DNA of 29,692 nt from Catajapyx aquilonaris (lineage: Eukaryota): NCBI GenBank assembly GCA_000934665.2, contig JYFJ02001098.1, positions 62,001-91,692 on the forward strand. The letters are read 5' to 3'. Numbering within the stretch: the stretch's first letter is position 1; every line of letters begins with the position of its first letter. A program made the translations under genes and the position numbers. This document shows, in pieces, positions 19,974 to 29,549 of the stretch. The notes under the pieces were generated by a model that ran no database searches, was not told the origin of the DNA, and was given only the letters and a program-made list of their open reading frames with translations.

Positions 19974-20782
19974 ATGCCTGTCCTCAACACGTGTTGCTTC
20001 TGCTGCACTACCCGCACCGGTACCCTCATTCTCGGGATTCTTAACTTGGTAAGATAAGTCAATGTAATTGTTGTGTATATGACGCTAATTTTTCTGGTCC
20101 ATATATAGATTGGTTCCGTGTTTGGATTACTTGGTTGCATTATTGTTCTGGCGTCATGGGATGGCATCACCAAGGATTGGAGGAAGGAAGCAGCTGCTCA
20201 AGGAGTCAACATTGAAGAGACTATTACGTGTAAGTGCTATTGCGGTTCATAAAACGTGGATATCTGGTGGTGTTAGGAAAACACAATAAGTTATACAAAG
20301 GAACTTGATAGCAACTTGCAGGATTAATGAAGGCTAATTTATTATTTCCATTATCAGTTCTGCTTGTTACCTTCATAATCATGATGATCTTGTGCCTGTT
20401 CTTCATCGCCGTGGCATCCATGCTCATACATGGAGTCCGAGAGGTTAGTCCATTTCACACTAAATTAGCCACGAAAGTATATCGATGCTTTTGATACGAA
20501 ATGTGGATTTAACCAGCATAATTATGATGATTACAAATTTTTCAGATGCGTCCCGGATTTATGATGCCTTACTTGGTGGTGACCGTGATCGGTTTGGTCC
20601 TGGGCACGATCTTGAACATCGCGACATTGGCAACCGGAGGATCAGTACTGGCAGGATTGATGGGTCTCATTGTTGGAAACGCCATCGGCATTTACTTCTT
20701 CCTGGTGATCTACTCGTACTACCAGGAGTTGCGGGAAGGAGGCGGAACAGCCGCTGTCCCGCCTAACAGCGCCAAGTTCTAA
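19974..20782 (+). CDS. Paralog 6: four-TM membrane protein, 172 aa; exons 19974-20048, 20109-20229, 20358-20443, 20546-20782
   Basis: MPVLNTCCFCCTTRTGTLILG...SMLIHGVRE/MRPGFMMPY...YSYYQELREGGGTAAVPPNSAKF*; AATAAA at 21077. Confidence 0.9.
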
Positions 20783-22499
20783 ACGCGTGCCTTTTTGTGT
20801 GCCATTATACATGCCATGTTGTGTTTCTTCCAGGTGTCATTGTACGTAACTTTAGAATATGGTTGGTGCAATTGCTCAGGCCCAAGATTTGTATACTCGA
20901 TCAACCATGTTTCTTCACTTGGAAACTGGTTGCTGGAGTAATAGATCTGTCAAGGCTTCCCGTAACACACAAGCTCGGCCTGTGCACATTGCACCAACCT
21001 GCGTATGTGTTGCCAATTTTTCTTGCCATTATTTTGATAATAGCAGAAAAAAAGTATCCAGTGTGCTTCAGATAAAAATAAACATTGTTGGTATTCAGAT
21101 CGTAAGTCGTTGCCGGATATAGATTGACGTACTGTTTCCAGTAAGCTGCATTTGCCACATGCACGCTCACAGTACAAGAAAATGTTATAGATCATGCAAG
21201 GGAATACGGTAATGACTGACGTTAATATTCCATAATATTATTATTGCTGGAAGAGTTGACTGGGAATGATTTGAATTCATGATTTTTGTTAATGTGTCGG
21301 TTCCAAAAGTGATGTAAAGTGAATTGTTTTGCTCTCATACAAGTAGTTTATTGTTGCATTGAGCGTACGTGGAGTAACAAGAGAGACGATTGAGACGCGA
21401 GCAATAATGACACAGGCTGTACTTGTAATAGCATTAGTGTAAAATAAAGCAAATATGGTCGAATTGGAGAATGTGTTACCATTTAATAACAAATATTTTG
21501 TTTCGTAGCCTACTGACTTGTCATTATTGAAAATCATTAATTCAATTCATTTCTAAGCAACTCCTCAACATGTTCCTTAAAATGTGTTTTGTAACTCTTT
21601 ATAATGCCTTATCATTAAAGTTTCTCTATAGTATTATCCAGAGTCATTTATATGAACAGCAACTTACCCACATGTGATTTATGTCCAAAAGGCTGTATTC
21701 AAGACTGTATCGGACCAATAATTAAAAACTTTGTATATCCAAGTTGTTGGTTTCATTTTTTTGAAGGAAAAAGCTAGGTCAAACTCAAAAGCTGCACCTA
21801 AATAAAACTGTCACTTGCAGTTTGGATATTGAACTATCATGATGACGCAATTGGGAACCATATTATTTTAAAACATTGTTAATCTTAATGATTATGCCTG
21901 GGTGTTGTAAAGTTGAAACACTGATTGATCACATAGTACAGTACATACCTAAGCAATCTGATCTCTAAAATTATATTGCACCATTTTCTGCTTAAAGTAG
22001 AGCAACCTTGCGAGAATAGTGTGTAAGAGCAGATGTGGTAGACTGTAGAGAGCATACACTCCAGGGCAATATTGCATTGTACGGGAACATTTATTACCTG
22101 ATGATCAGCGAAGAGAAGAGGACGGGGGCCGTGTTTCTCTATTGAAGATGACACGTCGAACCTGGGGGATGATTAAGAATTATTTAATATAGGGTAATTA
22201 TAAGAGTGTGATGAAATACGTGCAACAAAACGATGAGATGGATGTAATGAATACATAAAGAGTACACAGAATAAATATTAACGCTGCAGGGAGCCCATCA
22301 TCTCCTGACCATGTCACCCAGGGGTGCTTTGTAGTTTGTTGAGGGGCCCATCACCCGGACGACGGAGTATCACAAGGGTGTTTGGAACAGAACGCTATTA
22401 CACCCAACCAGACGAACTGCCAGTCTTGGAATCACTGCCTTAAACATCGTGATAACATCTGTATATTCCAAACTGGCGACTCCTACACACCAATTCACA

Positions 22500-23263
22500 A
22501 TGTTTGACGGTGACAACACGTCTGACACGTGTTGCTTCTGCTGCAGTACCCGCACAGGTACCCTTATTATCGGGATAATGTGCTTGGTAAGACAGTATGT
22601 CAGAGTAATTGACCTGCACTTGTACAAGCCATTTTTTACGCCCTTTCGTTCATAGGTGGTTGCCCTGTCCGGATTAATTGGGTACGTCATTCTTCTGGTG
22701 ACAGGAGACGAGTCCGTCAAGATCTACATCGAGTCTATTTATGGCGAAGATGTTTTAGAGTCTTATGCGCGTAAGTGTGCACCGCGTGTATTTTATCTTC
22801 CATAATCTCTGTTCTCGAAGACGTATGCTTCATGAGGCAGGTCCAGGCAAGAAAAGAAGTTTCATGTGTTCTTTTTCCAGTCCTGGACGAGTCTGACGTC
22901 CAGATCGAGTGTTTTATACTCATTTAGGTGCCCATTATTTCAGATTAATTACATTACTCAGGCACAGTCATTTTTGTACATAAAAATGCTACAAGTAGGT
23001 TTATTTCCCGACAATAAATTTTAATGACGCCTAACTTATTATTTTCATTACAGTCAGACCTCTTATCACAATAATTGCACTGATCATGGGTCTTCTCTTT
23101 GTCGTCGTGTCATCTATGCTCATACACGCAGTCCGAAAGGTCAGTTCATTTCACTCGTACTTGTAATAATTGATATGACCTTACCAGACTTGCCCGTTAT
23201 TATGCCAGCCCCAGACATTTTGCTATGGGGATTACAATTGCACTGCTCTGCAAGGATGTGGAT

Positions 23264-23353
<90 letters not shown>

Positions 23354-23742
23354 TAATTCCGCAGATGAGGCCTGGAAGGATGGTGCCATTCATGGCGTTC
23401 ATCGTGGCAAACCTAATCATTGGCTCGATTACCACCTTCTTGAGCATAGTCAATGGCACAGTAACTTACGCAGCATTGCTATTTGTGGTCGTGATAGATG
23501 CCATCGGGAGTTACTGCGTCCTGGTGATGTGCTCATACTACCGGGAGTTGAAATATGGCTTCGACGGAACAGCCGAAACAGGGCACGACGAAAATGGATA
23601 CGAAAGACTCATCGGAACAGAATACGGAAAAGTTGACGAGAGAGTCGGAACAGAAGACGGAACACGATCAGAAACAGTCGGAACAGAAGACAGAACACCA
23701 TCAGGAACAGTCGGAACAGCAGTTGTCCCGTCTAAAAGTTAA
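22500..23742 (+). CDS. Paralog 7: four-TM membrane protein with extended acidic repeat tail, 221 aa; exons 22500-22586, 22656-22770, 23054-23139, 23365-23742
   Basis: MFDGDNTSDTCCFCCSTRTGTLIIG...SMLIHAVRK/MRPGRMVPF...SYYREL...VVPSKS*; AATAAA at 23973. Confidence 0.87.
23264..23350. repeat. Compound microsatellite (TAC)17(TAA)12 in intron 3 of paralog 7
   Basis: Read directly; ends 14 nt before exon 4. Confidence 0.95.
23611..23719 (+). repeat. Coding minisatellite, 33-nt (11-aa) period, about 3.3 copies
   Basis: Units begin (A/G)TCGGAACAG at 23611, 23644, 23677 and 23710, encoding IGTEYGKVDER/VGTEDGTRSET/VGTEDRTPSGT/VGT. Confidence 0.85.
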
Positions 23743-24144
23743 AAGTTCTGAAGGTTCCTTATGCGTCATTATCCGTGCCATGCTGTCTCTTCCAGATGTT
23801 ACTGTAGGCTCCTGAATATGAGCAGCATGGGTCAACTGCCCATGCCCAAGATTTGTTGCAAATGATATGTAACGTCGCCTCCTAACACCAAGTCTGTGTC
23901 TGCATATTGGTCAAGATATTGGTCGACTACTTGCCCATTTGGTATTAGCAAAAAAAAAACAAGTATGATTCAAATAAAATTAACCAGTGTTGTCATCAAG
24001 ATCGTTAGTCGGTTCTGGATGTATAATTGCCATACTGGTTTCAATGTCAGCATTGCCATATGCAGGTCAACATGTTCGACCAGAAGAAAGAGGCTTGGAT
24101 GCTACGTAATAATAACAACACGATATTTGTCCATAAAAATTCAT

Positions 24145-24810
24145 CGCTATTTCCAAGTTCCTTAGGTCACTCGTAACTCATAATGACCATTCACTTCGTC
24201 TGAAATATGCTCTTGACCTTGGGGCAGCCAATAAAACCAAAATATCCAAAATACATTTCCGAATCAAGTGGGCTGAAATCACACTCCACTATAGAAATAT
24301 TGTTATGTCCACATTTTGAAGAAAATGAGTTATATCCTTCACTGGGTAGCTCAGTCCACCATAGAAGAATGGTATTTGGACCAAAATTGGCGACGTAGTG
24401 TTAAAATTTCCATCAATATTGTGATAGCTTTTATCTTACAAAATGTGATCTTCTTTTGGTTCTCCTGTAAAATTACCTTTTTGTGACGTACAATACTCCT
24501 ACTGGTGGAGTGCGAAATGCTGTTAGACCATATCGGATTTTGCTGATAAAAATCACAGGTGTAGTACACACACCTATGCCATAACGTCAGATATCAAATT
24601 AAATCCATATTGCTCAATACCGTGGGGAGGGGGAAAATCGCGAGAAAATGAGGCCTTTTTTGGATATTTTCTTCGGTTAGTGAAAATTCCCAAAACCCAA
24701 TCAACAAAATGTACGGTACACTATCAAATAAAAGAGAATGACGAGGAAAATCCGACTAGGGAATTAGTTTTACTCAAAAATGTAACGAGAAAAACGTGTC
24801 TGAAAAAAAT
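24145..24810. mobile_element. Candidate insertion of about 0.67 kb in the 3' flank of paralog 7 (boundaries approximate)
   Basis: Interrupts a block that is contiguous downstream of paralogs 6 and 8; homology resumes at TTGACTGGGAATGATTTGAATT near 24821. No TIR or TSD identified. Confidence 0.3.
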
Positions 24811-25207
24811 CTGCAAGAATTGACTGGGAATGATTTGAATTAATACATTTTCAACAGCATATTAGTCCAAAAGCGATGTAAGGTGAGTTGTTTCTGTAGC
24901 TCTCTCAAGAGTATAGTGTTGTGTTGCGCTGACAGAGTTGGTGCAGTAACAAAGACGCGAACGAAACGATGTCACTGGGACATAGCACAACTTTTAATTG
25001 ACGCTATTGGCTCATTTAAGGATACCTGTGCTTTGTTGAGGGCTCCATCACCCAGGCGACGGAGTATCACCAGTGTATTTGGAACAAATGTTATTATTTA
25101 CACCACCGTGCACCATCAGGACAAACTGGCTCGGAATCACTGACTAAACATCGTGATAACATCATCTGTATATTCCAGACTGTCAGACTGCTATACACAC
25201 CAACACA

Positions 25208-25855
25208 ATGATTGTCATGGACAATTGTTGCTTCTGCTGCAGTACCGGCACCGCTACCCTTATTATGGGAATAATTCTCTTGGTAAGATGTGTCCGTGTG
25301 ATTGATATGCACTCGTAAGCCGATTCTCTATCTTTCATTCACAGCTGATTGGCGTGCTCGGAACACTTTCGTTAAGCTTGATTCTGCTGGGAGAGCGGCT
25401 CATGGTCCAGCGCTTGATCAAGAGTGTTAATGACCCAGTGGACGGCCCACTAGTTGTCGAAAACCTCACTGCAAGGCATTATTCGTGTAAGCGTGCATCA
25501 CTTCTATTTGTCTTTCATTGCCTAAATAATGCACCCTGATGATCTCTAAGACGTCTGCATCATGTGTGGCAAAACACTAGTTCCATGTGATGGTTTTCCA
25601 GGCCTGGAACGAGTCTGAGGCGGTCTGGTGTGTTTAATACCAATTTAGGTGTCCATTATGTCAGATTAATTGCGCTACTATAATGAACAGCCATTATTGA
25701 TTTTAAAAACTTCCCAATCATGACTTCCTGAATTAATTACTTCCAATTAATTATTTTCATTACAGATGTCAAAGCCGGTTTCGCAATTGCGCTGATCATC
25801 TTTTTTTTCTTCGCAGTCTTGTCATCCTTTCTCATATACGGAGTCGCAAAGGTCA

Positions 25856-25938
<83 letters not shown>

Positions 25939-26257
25939 TCTACAGAAGCGTCCCGGAATGATGAAGCCTTTCATGATTTTCATCGGGGCAATCCTGTCCA
26001 TTTGCTTGATTGGCACCTTATTTAGCGTGATCACAGGCAGATTGTCGCATGTAGCATTGTCATATATGATCGTGGGAGAGGCCATTGGGATTTATCTCCT
26101 TGTGGTGATCTTCTCACACTACCGGGAGTTGCGAGCTGAAGGCGAAACAGGATACGGAACAGGACAAGGAAAAGGAAATGGATCAAGACGTGGAACAAGA
26201 AATGGCGCAAGAAATGGAAGCGTTGTACCAGCAGATTTCCTGTACTACATGAACTAA
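25208..26257 (+). CDS. Paralog 8: four-TM membrane protein with Gly/Arg-rich tail, 204 aa; exons 25208-25282, 25345-25486, 25766-25851, 25946-26257
   Basis: MIVMDNCCFCCSTGTATLIMG...SFLIYGVAK/KRPGMMKPF...SHYREL; AATAAA at 26511. Confidence 0.87.
25857..25937. repeat. Microsatellite (TAA)27 forming nearly all of intron 3 of paralog 8
   Basis: Read directly from the sequence. Confidence 0.95.
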
Positions 26258-27052
26258 AACATGCCTTATCCAGCATTATCCATGCCACGTTGTATCTTCC
26301 AGATGCCACTGTACCTGTCTTCAGAAAATATGCGCAGGTTGGGGCAGCTGACCAGACCCAAGATTTTTTTTTTTTTGTAAAATGATCTGTAGTCTTTTCC
26401 TAACCCACACTCGGCCTGTGCACCAAACCTGTGCATGAGTTGGTAGCACTTCTAAAACAAAATTACCATTATTTTGATATGAGCCAAAGAAAAATGTCTA
26501 GTGTACTTCAAATAAAATTAACCAGTGTTGGTTTTCAGATCATAAGCCGCTTCCGGAAGTAGATTGATGTATTGTTTCCAGTTATTTAGCAACATTGCCA
26601 CATATTCAGACCAACAGTGGACTACAATAATGTTATAAGTCATACGGTAGACAAGAAGAAGAGGTAATGATTGTATATTGTTAATGATAATGTTCTTACT
26701 GCTGGAATAATTGGCCACGAATTATTTGAATTAATGATTGTTTAGCCACATCCCAGTGCAAAAGTGTTGCAGAGTGAGTTGCTTTTCTCTCCTATAAAAG
26801 TAGTTTATTGTTACACAGTGCAATACGTACAGCAGAGAATAGACGGGAGAGTACACAGTAAATTCAACGAGAGACACAATCATCTCGGGGACCATGTCAC
26901 TCATAGTGCTTTGTTGACTGACGCATTACCCAGGAGACGGATTTTCACTAGGGTATTTGGAACAGAAGGTTATTATTTGCATATGCTCAAATCGTGACCA
27001 CAATCATCATCTGTATATTCCAGACTGTCCGATTGGTCTACAGATCAACACA

Positions 27053-28514
27053 ATGATTGTCCTTGACACTTGTTTCTACTGCTTCAGTGTCCGCACCGGT
27101 ACCTTGATTATTGGGCTAATTTGCTTGGTAAGATAATGTCAGCGTAATTGACGTGCACTCGTAAGCATTTTTTTTCCTTTCGTTCATAGATGATTGGCGT
27201 GCTCGGATCACTTTTGACCATCCTTATTATGTTATATGGGAGGCACACCATGAAGCGCTTTATCAAGAGAGTATATGGAGATGAGGCTGCAGATTCTAAA
27301 ACATGTAAATGTGCATCACTGTTATTTATTTTTCATTACCTAAATGCATCCTGTTCTTGAATACGTATGCATCATGAGACAGGTCGAAGCAGGATAACGC
27401 AAGTTTAGTGGAATGGTTTTCCAGTTTGAGATCCTAGTCGGGTGTTTTATATCCATTTAGGTGCCAATTATTTAAGATTAATTGCGCTACTCAGACACAT
27501 ATATTTTCACAAAGAAATGCTACTTCCGAATCATAACCTGATGAATTAATTAAGCCCAATTTATTATTTTCATTACAGTTGTCACTGTTGCTTTAATAAT
27601 AATGCTGCTCCTCGGTCTTCTCCTCGCAATCTGGTCATTCCTGCTCATATACGGAGTCCAAAAGGTCAGTTTATTTCAGTTGACATATTAGTATTTCCAT
27701 ACTCCAGGGCTCTACCCTATATACAATATAGCTCAACATGTAACTTACGTCACTCTACTAACTTGCCACACTTGGTATATAACCGAGAGGTAGCAGGTTT
27801 TTCAGATTCAATCCCTACATAATGAGGCATAGTAAATAACATTTATTTACATATTATCATGCATGTTATCCTTAGCCTATAAACAATGAGCAATTTTAGC
27901 TGTGTCCTATGAATATTCATAGGCGCTGATTCAGATTTTTTTTCTGTCAGTATCGATGTTTTTGTAACAATCCTTGCTTCTCCGAAGTCAGAATATTTAT
28001 ATATTTTGGCGTTCATTTTCTTGTAACAAACCTATACTCGTTTGCCTTTTACATAGGCCTATTTCTCAACGACATCTTATGCATACCATATATTTAAATA
28101 TTATATATTTTCCAGAGTTTTGGCTTTTCTACTGCTGTAACAATAGGGCCTCATAGGGCTGACACAGGTCATCCATAAATTAAGCCATATTAGCCATTAC
28201 CTACTCACAAATGACAAATTATGTGGAATTTGAACGTGTATGATTTTGCTGCCATAAAAATGCCAATTACTCAAAAAAGACTGAGCGATAGAAAAAAAGC
28301 AGTTAAGAAATATGAAATAAGCGCAAAAAATGCAATTATAATCGCATTCTTGTACACGTAACGAAAAAAAAAAATCATTTTTCGAACATCGTGACAGTAT
28401 CATCGATGAAAGACATTAACGTACTTTCCATTTACATCGTGCTAACCACATGGCTTATTTTATTTTGTGACAATATTATTGCACTGTGCTGCAAGGAATG
28501 TGGATTTAACCTGC

Positions 28515-28602
<88 letters not shown>

Positions 28603-28879
28603 TCCGCAGAAGCGTCCCGGAATGATGAAGCCTTTCATGATTTACATCATGGCAAACATGGCCATTGGCTGTTTGAGCACCATAGTGAGCGTGTTGACCG
28701 GCAAGCAACCGTCCGAAATATTGGTACTTATGGTCGTGATAAACTCCCTTCTGAGTAATCTCCTCCTGGTGATCTATTCTCACTACCGGATGGTGAAACA
28801 TGAAGTCAGAGAAGTCGGAGCACCAGGACGCGTTTTAGGACGAGTAGGCCTACGCATAACAGGACATGGAAGACGATAA
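27053..28879 (+). CDS. Paralog 9: four-TM membrane protein, 181 aa; exons 27053-27127, 27190-27304, 27579-27664, 28610-28879
   Basis: MIVLDTCFYCFSVRTGTLIIG...FLLIYGVQK/KRPGMMKPF...YSHYRMV...GRR*; canonical splice sites, intron phases 0/1/0. Confidence 0.86.
28516..28602. repeat. Microsatellite (AAT)29 in intron 3 of paralog 9
   Basis: Read directly; abuts the acceptor TCCGCAG. Confidence 0.95.
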
Positions 28880-29468: not shown

Positions 29469-29549
29469 ATGTATGTCCTCAAGAGTTGTTGCTGCATATT
29501 CAGTACTGGCACCGGTAGCGCCATTGCAGGGATCAGTACATTGCCATTG
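29469..29549 (+). CDS. Paralog 10, coding exon 1 only (remainder outside the window, or truncated)
   Basis: CAACACAATG start context as in paralogs 6, 8 and 9; MYVLKSCCCIFSTGTGSAIAGISTLPL followed by the donor GTAAGA. The upstream block (about 29320-29400) is homologous to those before paralogs 7-9. Confidence 0.7.

Follow-up and report, generated by a model that had tools for sequence, protein, structure and literature searches.

In short introns of the Drosophila type, which are recognized by intron definition, the stretch between the donor and the branch point acts mainly as a loop that must have a certain length, the sequence of the branch site varies and the avoidance of AG is a main constraint (PMC10946897). 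Simple repeats can also fill the branch and pyrimidine-tract region, as in the zebrafish (AC)m-(GT)n introns, which are spliced, are poorly conserved as single cases and need two complementary repeats that pair across the intron (PMC4691745). The same text cites human APOA2, with its (GT)16 3' splice site, and the GU-repeat acceptor of CFTR, in which a microsatellite directly ahead of the acceptor replaces the normal tract while the rest of the intron is normal, these GU repeats having known binding proteins (cited in PMC4691745). At a broader scale, STR copy number has been associated with splicing in human cortex, the spliceSTRs being statistical associations in human (PMC13174678).

Here we describe a predicted intron of Catajapyx aquilonaris, the third of the eighth paralog of a tandem gene family, that can be compared with each of these systems. 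Like the Drosophila-type short introns, it is a short GT-AG intron in which donor-to-branch length would prevail over sequence, with a variable branch site and no AG ahead of the acceptor; unlike them, its spacer, its branch region and most of its pyrimidine-tract region are one perfect triplet array offering many equivalent branch registers. It shares with the zebrafish introns the filling of the branch and tract regions by a simple repeat, but it contains a single repeat. The hairpin bridging of the zebrafish introns was rejected for paralog 8, whose single repeat is predicted to be unpaired (z 0.65; 147 of 200 shuffles fold equally well or better). As in APOA2 and CFTR, the microsatellite lies directly ahead of the acceptor, where a normal tract would stand; in contrast to these two, the intron consists almost entirely of a UAA array. 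Its repeat copy number could affect splicing, as for the spliceSTRs. No published precedent for a near-pure microsatellite intron was found in the literature searched, most subscription papers lying outside it, and the absence of one is not proven. Low-complexity introns of AT-rich protists may be a precedent.

The host gene family and the anatomy of intron 3

The window, i.e., the whole stretch of DNA that was analyzed (29,692 nt), is the end of a contig (C455) in an assembly of 286 Mb and 20,583 contigs. It contains nine complete four-exon paralogs and the start of a tenth near 29470. All nine complete paralogs have GT..AG ends and phases 0/1/0 in their three introns, an exon 3 of 86 nt and an open joined frame (172-221 aa); the exon boundaries were picked among open combinations within hand-set ranges, and this agreement is a consistency check rather than a blind test. 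The position of intron 3 in paralog 8 is common to all nine paralogs in their alignment, and it is for this reason that the stretch 25852-25945 is called an intron, the motif alone being at chance level. The same shared position led us to reject a newly gained or introner-type intron. Across the genome, at least 27 copies of exon 4 were found, one of them with an internal stop.

The host gene resembles the DUF4728 or tetraspan Pasiflora-LAPTM4 group, in which a recent report places Drosophila Ikebana (CG15098), a four-helix DUF4728 protein (10.1101/2024.04.13.589362). Indeed, it encodes four predicted hydrophobic segments, and PF15860 (DUF4728) is matched by five of eight single-exon queries (E 1e-4 to 0.016), all of them below the gathering score of 26.7 bits, the queried exon lacking profile positions 1-21. 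It differs from that group in that its matches remain under the gathering score, in its fast-evolving tandem expansion and in the result of the homologue search, which, for longer proteins only, found no full-length homologue. Atlas matches reached 0.90 to a cluster with 19% PF15860 and 0.91 to an unnamed cluster. Gly/Thr-rich tandem repeats at 23612-23719 and 26168-26219 lengthen the C-terminal tails of paralogs 7 and 8, and a high-copy dispersed repeat (summed contig depth up to ~20,000) occupies 24116-24670 between these two genes.

Table 1. Coordinates of paralog 8, of the comparable introns of its neighbors and of repeat-filled introns at other loci (window positions unless a locus is named)
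Feature	Position	Strand	Description
Paralog 8 exon 1	25208..25282	+	25 codons; Cys-rich N-terminus and first part of hydrophobic segment 1
Paralog 8 exon 2	25345..25486	+	second of four exons
Paralog 8 exon 3	25766..25851	+	86 nt, hydrophobic segment 2
Paralog 8 intron 3 (predicted)	25852..25945	+	94 nt, phase 0, GT..AG, 86% repeat
Donor hexamer	25852..25857	+	sole leftover of the 5' unique part known from relatives; base 6 is the first array base
TAA array	25857..25937	+	27 perfect units, G-free, predicted unpaired, 27 equivalent branch-like adenosines
Acceptor stub	25938..25945	+	8 nt, ends CAG; homologous to the stubs of paralogs 7 and 9 and of G000:C8772
Second AG (tandem acceptor)	25946..25948	+	3 bases downstream; use would drop one Lys, in frame
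Paralog 8 exon 4	25946..26257	+	hydrophobic segments 3 and 4; positions 22-91 of the DUF4728 profile weakly matched
Paralog 6 intron 3	20444..20545	+	102 nt; at the same place a short run of degenerate triplets, presumably a proto-repeat state
Paralog 7 intron 3	23140..23364	+	225 nt; unique 5' part, then 17 TAC + 12 TAA units (23264-23350) ahead of the acceptor
Paralog 9 intron 3	27665..28609	+	945 nt; 28 TAA units (28518-28601) and 8-nt acceptor stub following a unique 5' part
ATG16L1-like gene, last intron	L092:1501-1608 (G000:C209 near 100657)		108 nt, 24 TAA units, 67% repeat, 36 non-repeat nt
GH31 glucosidase, GC..AG intron	L283:454-573 (G000:C928)		120 nt, 29 TTA units into the acceptor, 72% repeat, 33 non-repeat nt
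Putative repeat-filled short intron	L243 (G000:C144)		89 nt, 78% repeat
Putative repeat-filled short intron	L117 (G000:C2420)		72 nt, 67% repeat
Putative repeat-filled short intron	L257 (G000:C344)		126 nt, 62% repeat
Putative repeat-filled short intron	L168 (G000:C2545)		81 nt, 81% repeat

Paralog 8 intron 3 consists of a 5-nt donor stub, 81 nt of TAA units and the acceptor stub, which leaves 13 non-repeat bases (Table 1). This recount is identical to the lengths given for the intron and its repeat in an initial annotation of the locus, and TRF agrees with it (27.3 copies, 100% matches). The flanking exons had also been described as intact and in frame; joined, exons 3 and 4 indeed complete a 204-aa ORF with no internal stop, with hydropathy segments predicted at residues 7-44, 71-102, 104-135 and 136-160. 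Retention of the intron, whose own sequence holds no stop in this frame, would append VS and 27 Asn, shift the frame and end the protein at 158 aa, with the stop codon at 26023-26025; translation hence bears out the earlier prediction that the last two hydrophobic segments, 3 and 4, would be lost.

With respect to splicing signals, the donor matches the U1 consensus at seven of nine positions, like those of paralogs 7 and 9, and the array is without G and therefore contains neither a cryptic GT nor a cryptic AG. The pyrimidine fraction ahead of the acceptor is 0.45, with a longest run of 4. The initial annotation noted that a conventional pyrimidine tract and a unique branch-point sequence are missing, and this point is overstated: a weak tract is not a special trait of paralog 8, since five of the 24 array-free introns of the cluster also have a fraction of 0.5 or less. 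All 27 branch-like adenosines, from -87 to -9, lie inside the array. Between -45 and -15, 11 branch-like heptamers have the same score of 5/6, a sequence score against a branch consensus without shuffle control; on this scale, the top site of an array-free intron reaches 6 in 2 of the 24 cases, 5 in 17 and 4 in 5, and the repeat heptamer equals or exceeds the best site in 22 of these 24 neighbors.

Intron 3 measures 59, 63, 251, 208, 377, 102, 225, 94 and 945 nt in paralogs 1 to 9. The shortest of the 27 introns of the cluster has 59 nt and lengths of 59-70 nt are common, so that the intron of paralog 8 lies above the local minimum; approximately 16 units would bring it to 59 nt, i.e., ~11 of the 27 would have to go. 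As only 13 bases are not repeat, the array must provide both the length and the branch adenosine if the intron is spliced, and on this conditional point the anatomy agrees with what had been proposed earlier.

Descent of the array and a model for its splicing

Triplet arrays of at least eight units, lying no more than 120 nt from the acceptor of intron 3, are present in six of the 27 family copies, namely paralogs 7, 8 and 9, a copy on contig G000:C8772 (15 AAC + 13 AAT) and two copies on contig G000:C736 (8 GAT-type units); the other 21 have no run of four or more triplet units at that place. These six copies form one clade, weakly supported (87/60, not starred). Both C736 copies are near the contig start, with no recognizable exon 3 within 1.5 kb, and at L013:1364-1763 the GAT array upstream of family exon 4 is interrupted by a ~290-nt element with inverted ends. 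In paralog 6 and in a copy on G000:C2976, short degenerate triplet runs stand behind the conserved motif that precedes the arrays of paralogs 7 and 9 and of C8772. These five copies have their first ~14 intron bases in common, whereas paralog 8 shares six, after which the array begins.

This comparison indicates that the array of paralog 8 is inherited from the clade ancestor and is not new. Since its relatives keep a unique 5' part where paralog 8 has only its six donor bases, the present intron is likely the product of a deletion from +7 into the array. Unit number varies within the family, because G000:C10677, a second copy or haplotype of the paralog 6-paralog 7 interval (92-98% identical to window 20737-23411, ending 50 nt into exon 4 of paralog 7), has 16 TAA units in intron 3 of paralog 7 against 12 in the window. 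The compound arrays of paralog 7 (23264-23350) and of C8772 (L216:1404-1490) have their TAC or AAC blocks ending at -50/-49 and their TAA block nearest the acceptor.

We consider that the stretch 25852-25945 is genuinely present in the assembly and that it is most likely a functional intron, of the ordinary short kind but in an extreme form: with a probability of about 0.7, it would be a U2-type intron whose unique 5' part was likely lost and whose inherited TAA array serves as passive spacer and redundant source of branch adenosines. In this model, a short triplet run near the branch region, such as those of paralog 6 and C2976, would have expanded in the ancestor of paralogs 7, 8 and 9 and C8772, the expanded array would have made unique intron sequence dispensable, and the deletion would then have removed this sequence in paralog 8. 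U1 and U6 would recognize the intact donor hexamer and U2 would pair with one of several equivalent UAAU registers, approximately 18-40 nt from the 3' end; as the array holds no AG, the first AG downstream of the branch would necessarily be the correct one. Repeat number would matter as a threshold (~16 units) and not as a dial. Such an intron would fit the published short-intron rules without new machinery.

Repeat-filled introns elsewhere in the genome

In genome-wide pattern counts, TAA arrays were not enriched next to splice-like motifs when compared with reversed controls, overlaps being counted: a donor-like pentamer directly ahead of eight TAA units was found 8 times versus 8 in the control, TAA arrays directly ahead of an acceptor-like motif 97 versus 94 times, and a third pattern 89 versus 84 times. 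A further pattern gave 30 versus 468, a control probably dominated by a repeat family. Unlike TAA, TTA arrays directly ahead of an acceptor-like motif were counted 400 times versus 159 in the reversed control. Of the 55 examined, which come from the first 100 of these 400 matches, 18 continue as TACAGT and may be transposon ends, for which reason selection on TTA arrays at acceptors is not claimed; some of the motifs are true acceptors, where the array could replace the U-rich tract.

Donor-like and acceptor-like flanks surround 76 of 188 distinct TAA arrays, most of them without coding evidence. Peptides from the flanks matched Pfam in 5 of 91 and 3 of 44 cases, in an insensitive test that missed the exon of paralog 8 itself at the same cut-off. 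Among these 188 TAA arrays and the 55 TTA arrays among the matches listed, at least two short introns have homology on both sides. In the ATG16L1-like gene, the exons on either side of the 108-nt intron match residues 236-277 and 282-307 of 9h2q_B and, in the GH31 glucosidase gene, those flanking the 120-nt intron match residues 246-278 and 280-320 of 2qly_A. In addition, repeat makes up 53% of a 131-nt intron in an MFS gene, and arrays reach the acceptors in ASC-channel and LDLa-domain genes. At the loci L067 (G000:C1591) and L036 (G000:C209), arrays begin at the donor side: a CD36-family gene passes from its donor GT directly into 25 repeat units, and in CASK 23 units start at intron +8. The candidate intron of L243 (Table 1) follows a possible 12-nt microexon, and L051, which we take to be ZFPL1, had no match in Pfam and PDB. 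With its 86% of repeat, the intron of paralog 8 is the most extreme one with coding evidence among the TAA and TTA arrays surveyed.

A wider reading, which we put forward only tentatively and hold to be rather doubtful, is that the genome holds a class of microsatellite-dependent introns produced by a ratchet, in which an array expands, unique sequence is lost and a hypermutable repeat becomes load-bearing for length and, as TAA, for the branch point. The compound arrays of paralog 7 and C8772 touch on this reading, as the non-branch-like TAC and AAC blocks stop short and TAA is kept at the acceptor, in two cases only. If such a class existed, contraction alleles would be splice-null or leaky and selection would maintain a minimum number of units; paralog 8 would represent the end point, and the ATG16L1-like and GH31 introns, which keep 36 and 33 non-repeat nt, would be under way.

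Alternative explanations and biological meaning

The deletion could, in principle, have crippled splicing, leaving a broken or leaky copy in which the intron is mostly retained or which is silent, its exons being intact only since the event is young. A signal of purifying selection on paralog 8, sought through dN/dS against paralogs 6, 7 and 9, was not found: dN equals or exceeds dS in five of the six comparisons, with values for paralogs 8 and 9 of 0.44 versus 0.35 in exons 1-3 and 0.41 versus 0.22 in the exon 4 core. In simulations of neutral change limited to point mutations, without indels, 4-16% of runs keep the frame of paralog 8 open. The exons would show no trace of a recent deletion, the deletion cannot be dated, and the family is large and redundant, with one internal stop among its 27 matches. 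For paralogs 7, 8 and 9 together (window 22500-28879), dN is at least equal to dS while the frames and the hydrophobic pattern are intact, a picture which suggests that selection on this tandem family of membrane proteins, with its 27 or more copies, is relaxed or positive. Against a broken copy speak the intact donor and acceptor and a length of 94 nt, above the 59-70 nt common in the cluster; moreover, paralogs 7 and 9 and C8772 are already repeat-only from -9 to -45 with open exon-4 frames, and conserved genes, ATG16L1-like and GH31, carry comparable introns. We hence judge a crippled intron improbable.

We also give little credence to an assembly collapse, in which the true intron would contain two arrays, or a longer interrupted one, with unique sequence hidden in between and joined over by the assembler. 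In each of the three DNA runs, which represent one sample, probably the source of the assembly, and are not independent, a 1453-nt contig covers 24430-25871 without any difference, crossing exon 3, the donor and five TAA units before 11 letters more. The left junction of the array is therefore present in the reads, but coverage ends five units into the array and no record spans it in full. Run X5 covers only dispersed-repeat parts of the stretch and has no bearing on expression. A collapse would be in keeping with the fragmentation of the assembly and with array lengths: the 190 arrays of at least 30 nt in 216 selected loci peak at 60-79 nt and drop above 90 nt (longest pure array, 93 nt), and the long arrays of the paralog 8 clade bunch at 81-99 nt, close to the greatest lengths that were assembled. 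These lengths could be a read-length ceiling, and 27 units may be a floor of the true number. However, with the left junction in the reads, a second array would have to have arisen right at the donor, where five relatives have none. In addition, none of 15 runs of at least five N in the fetched loci lies at an AAT array, and no orphan copy of the pre-array sequence turned up (one candidate, checked), in an insensitive search that also missed the paralog 7 homologue.

A selected tuning knob, by which repeat-length alleles would act on branch choice or on a protein that binds AU-rich sequence and so set the proportion of four-helix protein and truncated poly-Asn form, is very unlikely: the variation of repeat length in paralog 7, the associations described in human cortex and a retained frame free of stops within the intron are in its favor, but TAA arrays are no more frequent at splice-like motifs than in reversed controls, no allele of the paralog 8 intron was seen with one contig per run (contigs drop variants), and 27 units stand far above the probable threshold. 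The suggestion of the initial annotation that repeat-length alleles could tune splicing is not supported, ~11 units having to be lost before the intron falls below 59 nt.

If spliced, intron 3 of paralog 8 would be a near-minimal natural intron, reduced to six bases at the donor, eight at the acceptor and a UAA spacer that carries no information, and would indicate the small amount of intron sequence with which the major spliceosome can work in an animal. With so many equivalent branch registers, it would be a clean substrate for the question of how distance alone sets the branch position, and alleles of different repeat length would form a natural ladder toward the minimum length of an intron.
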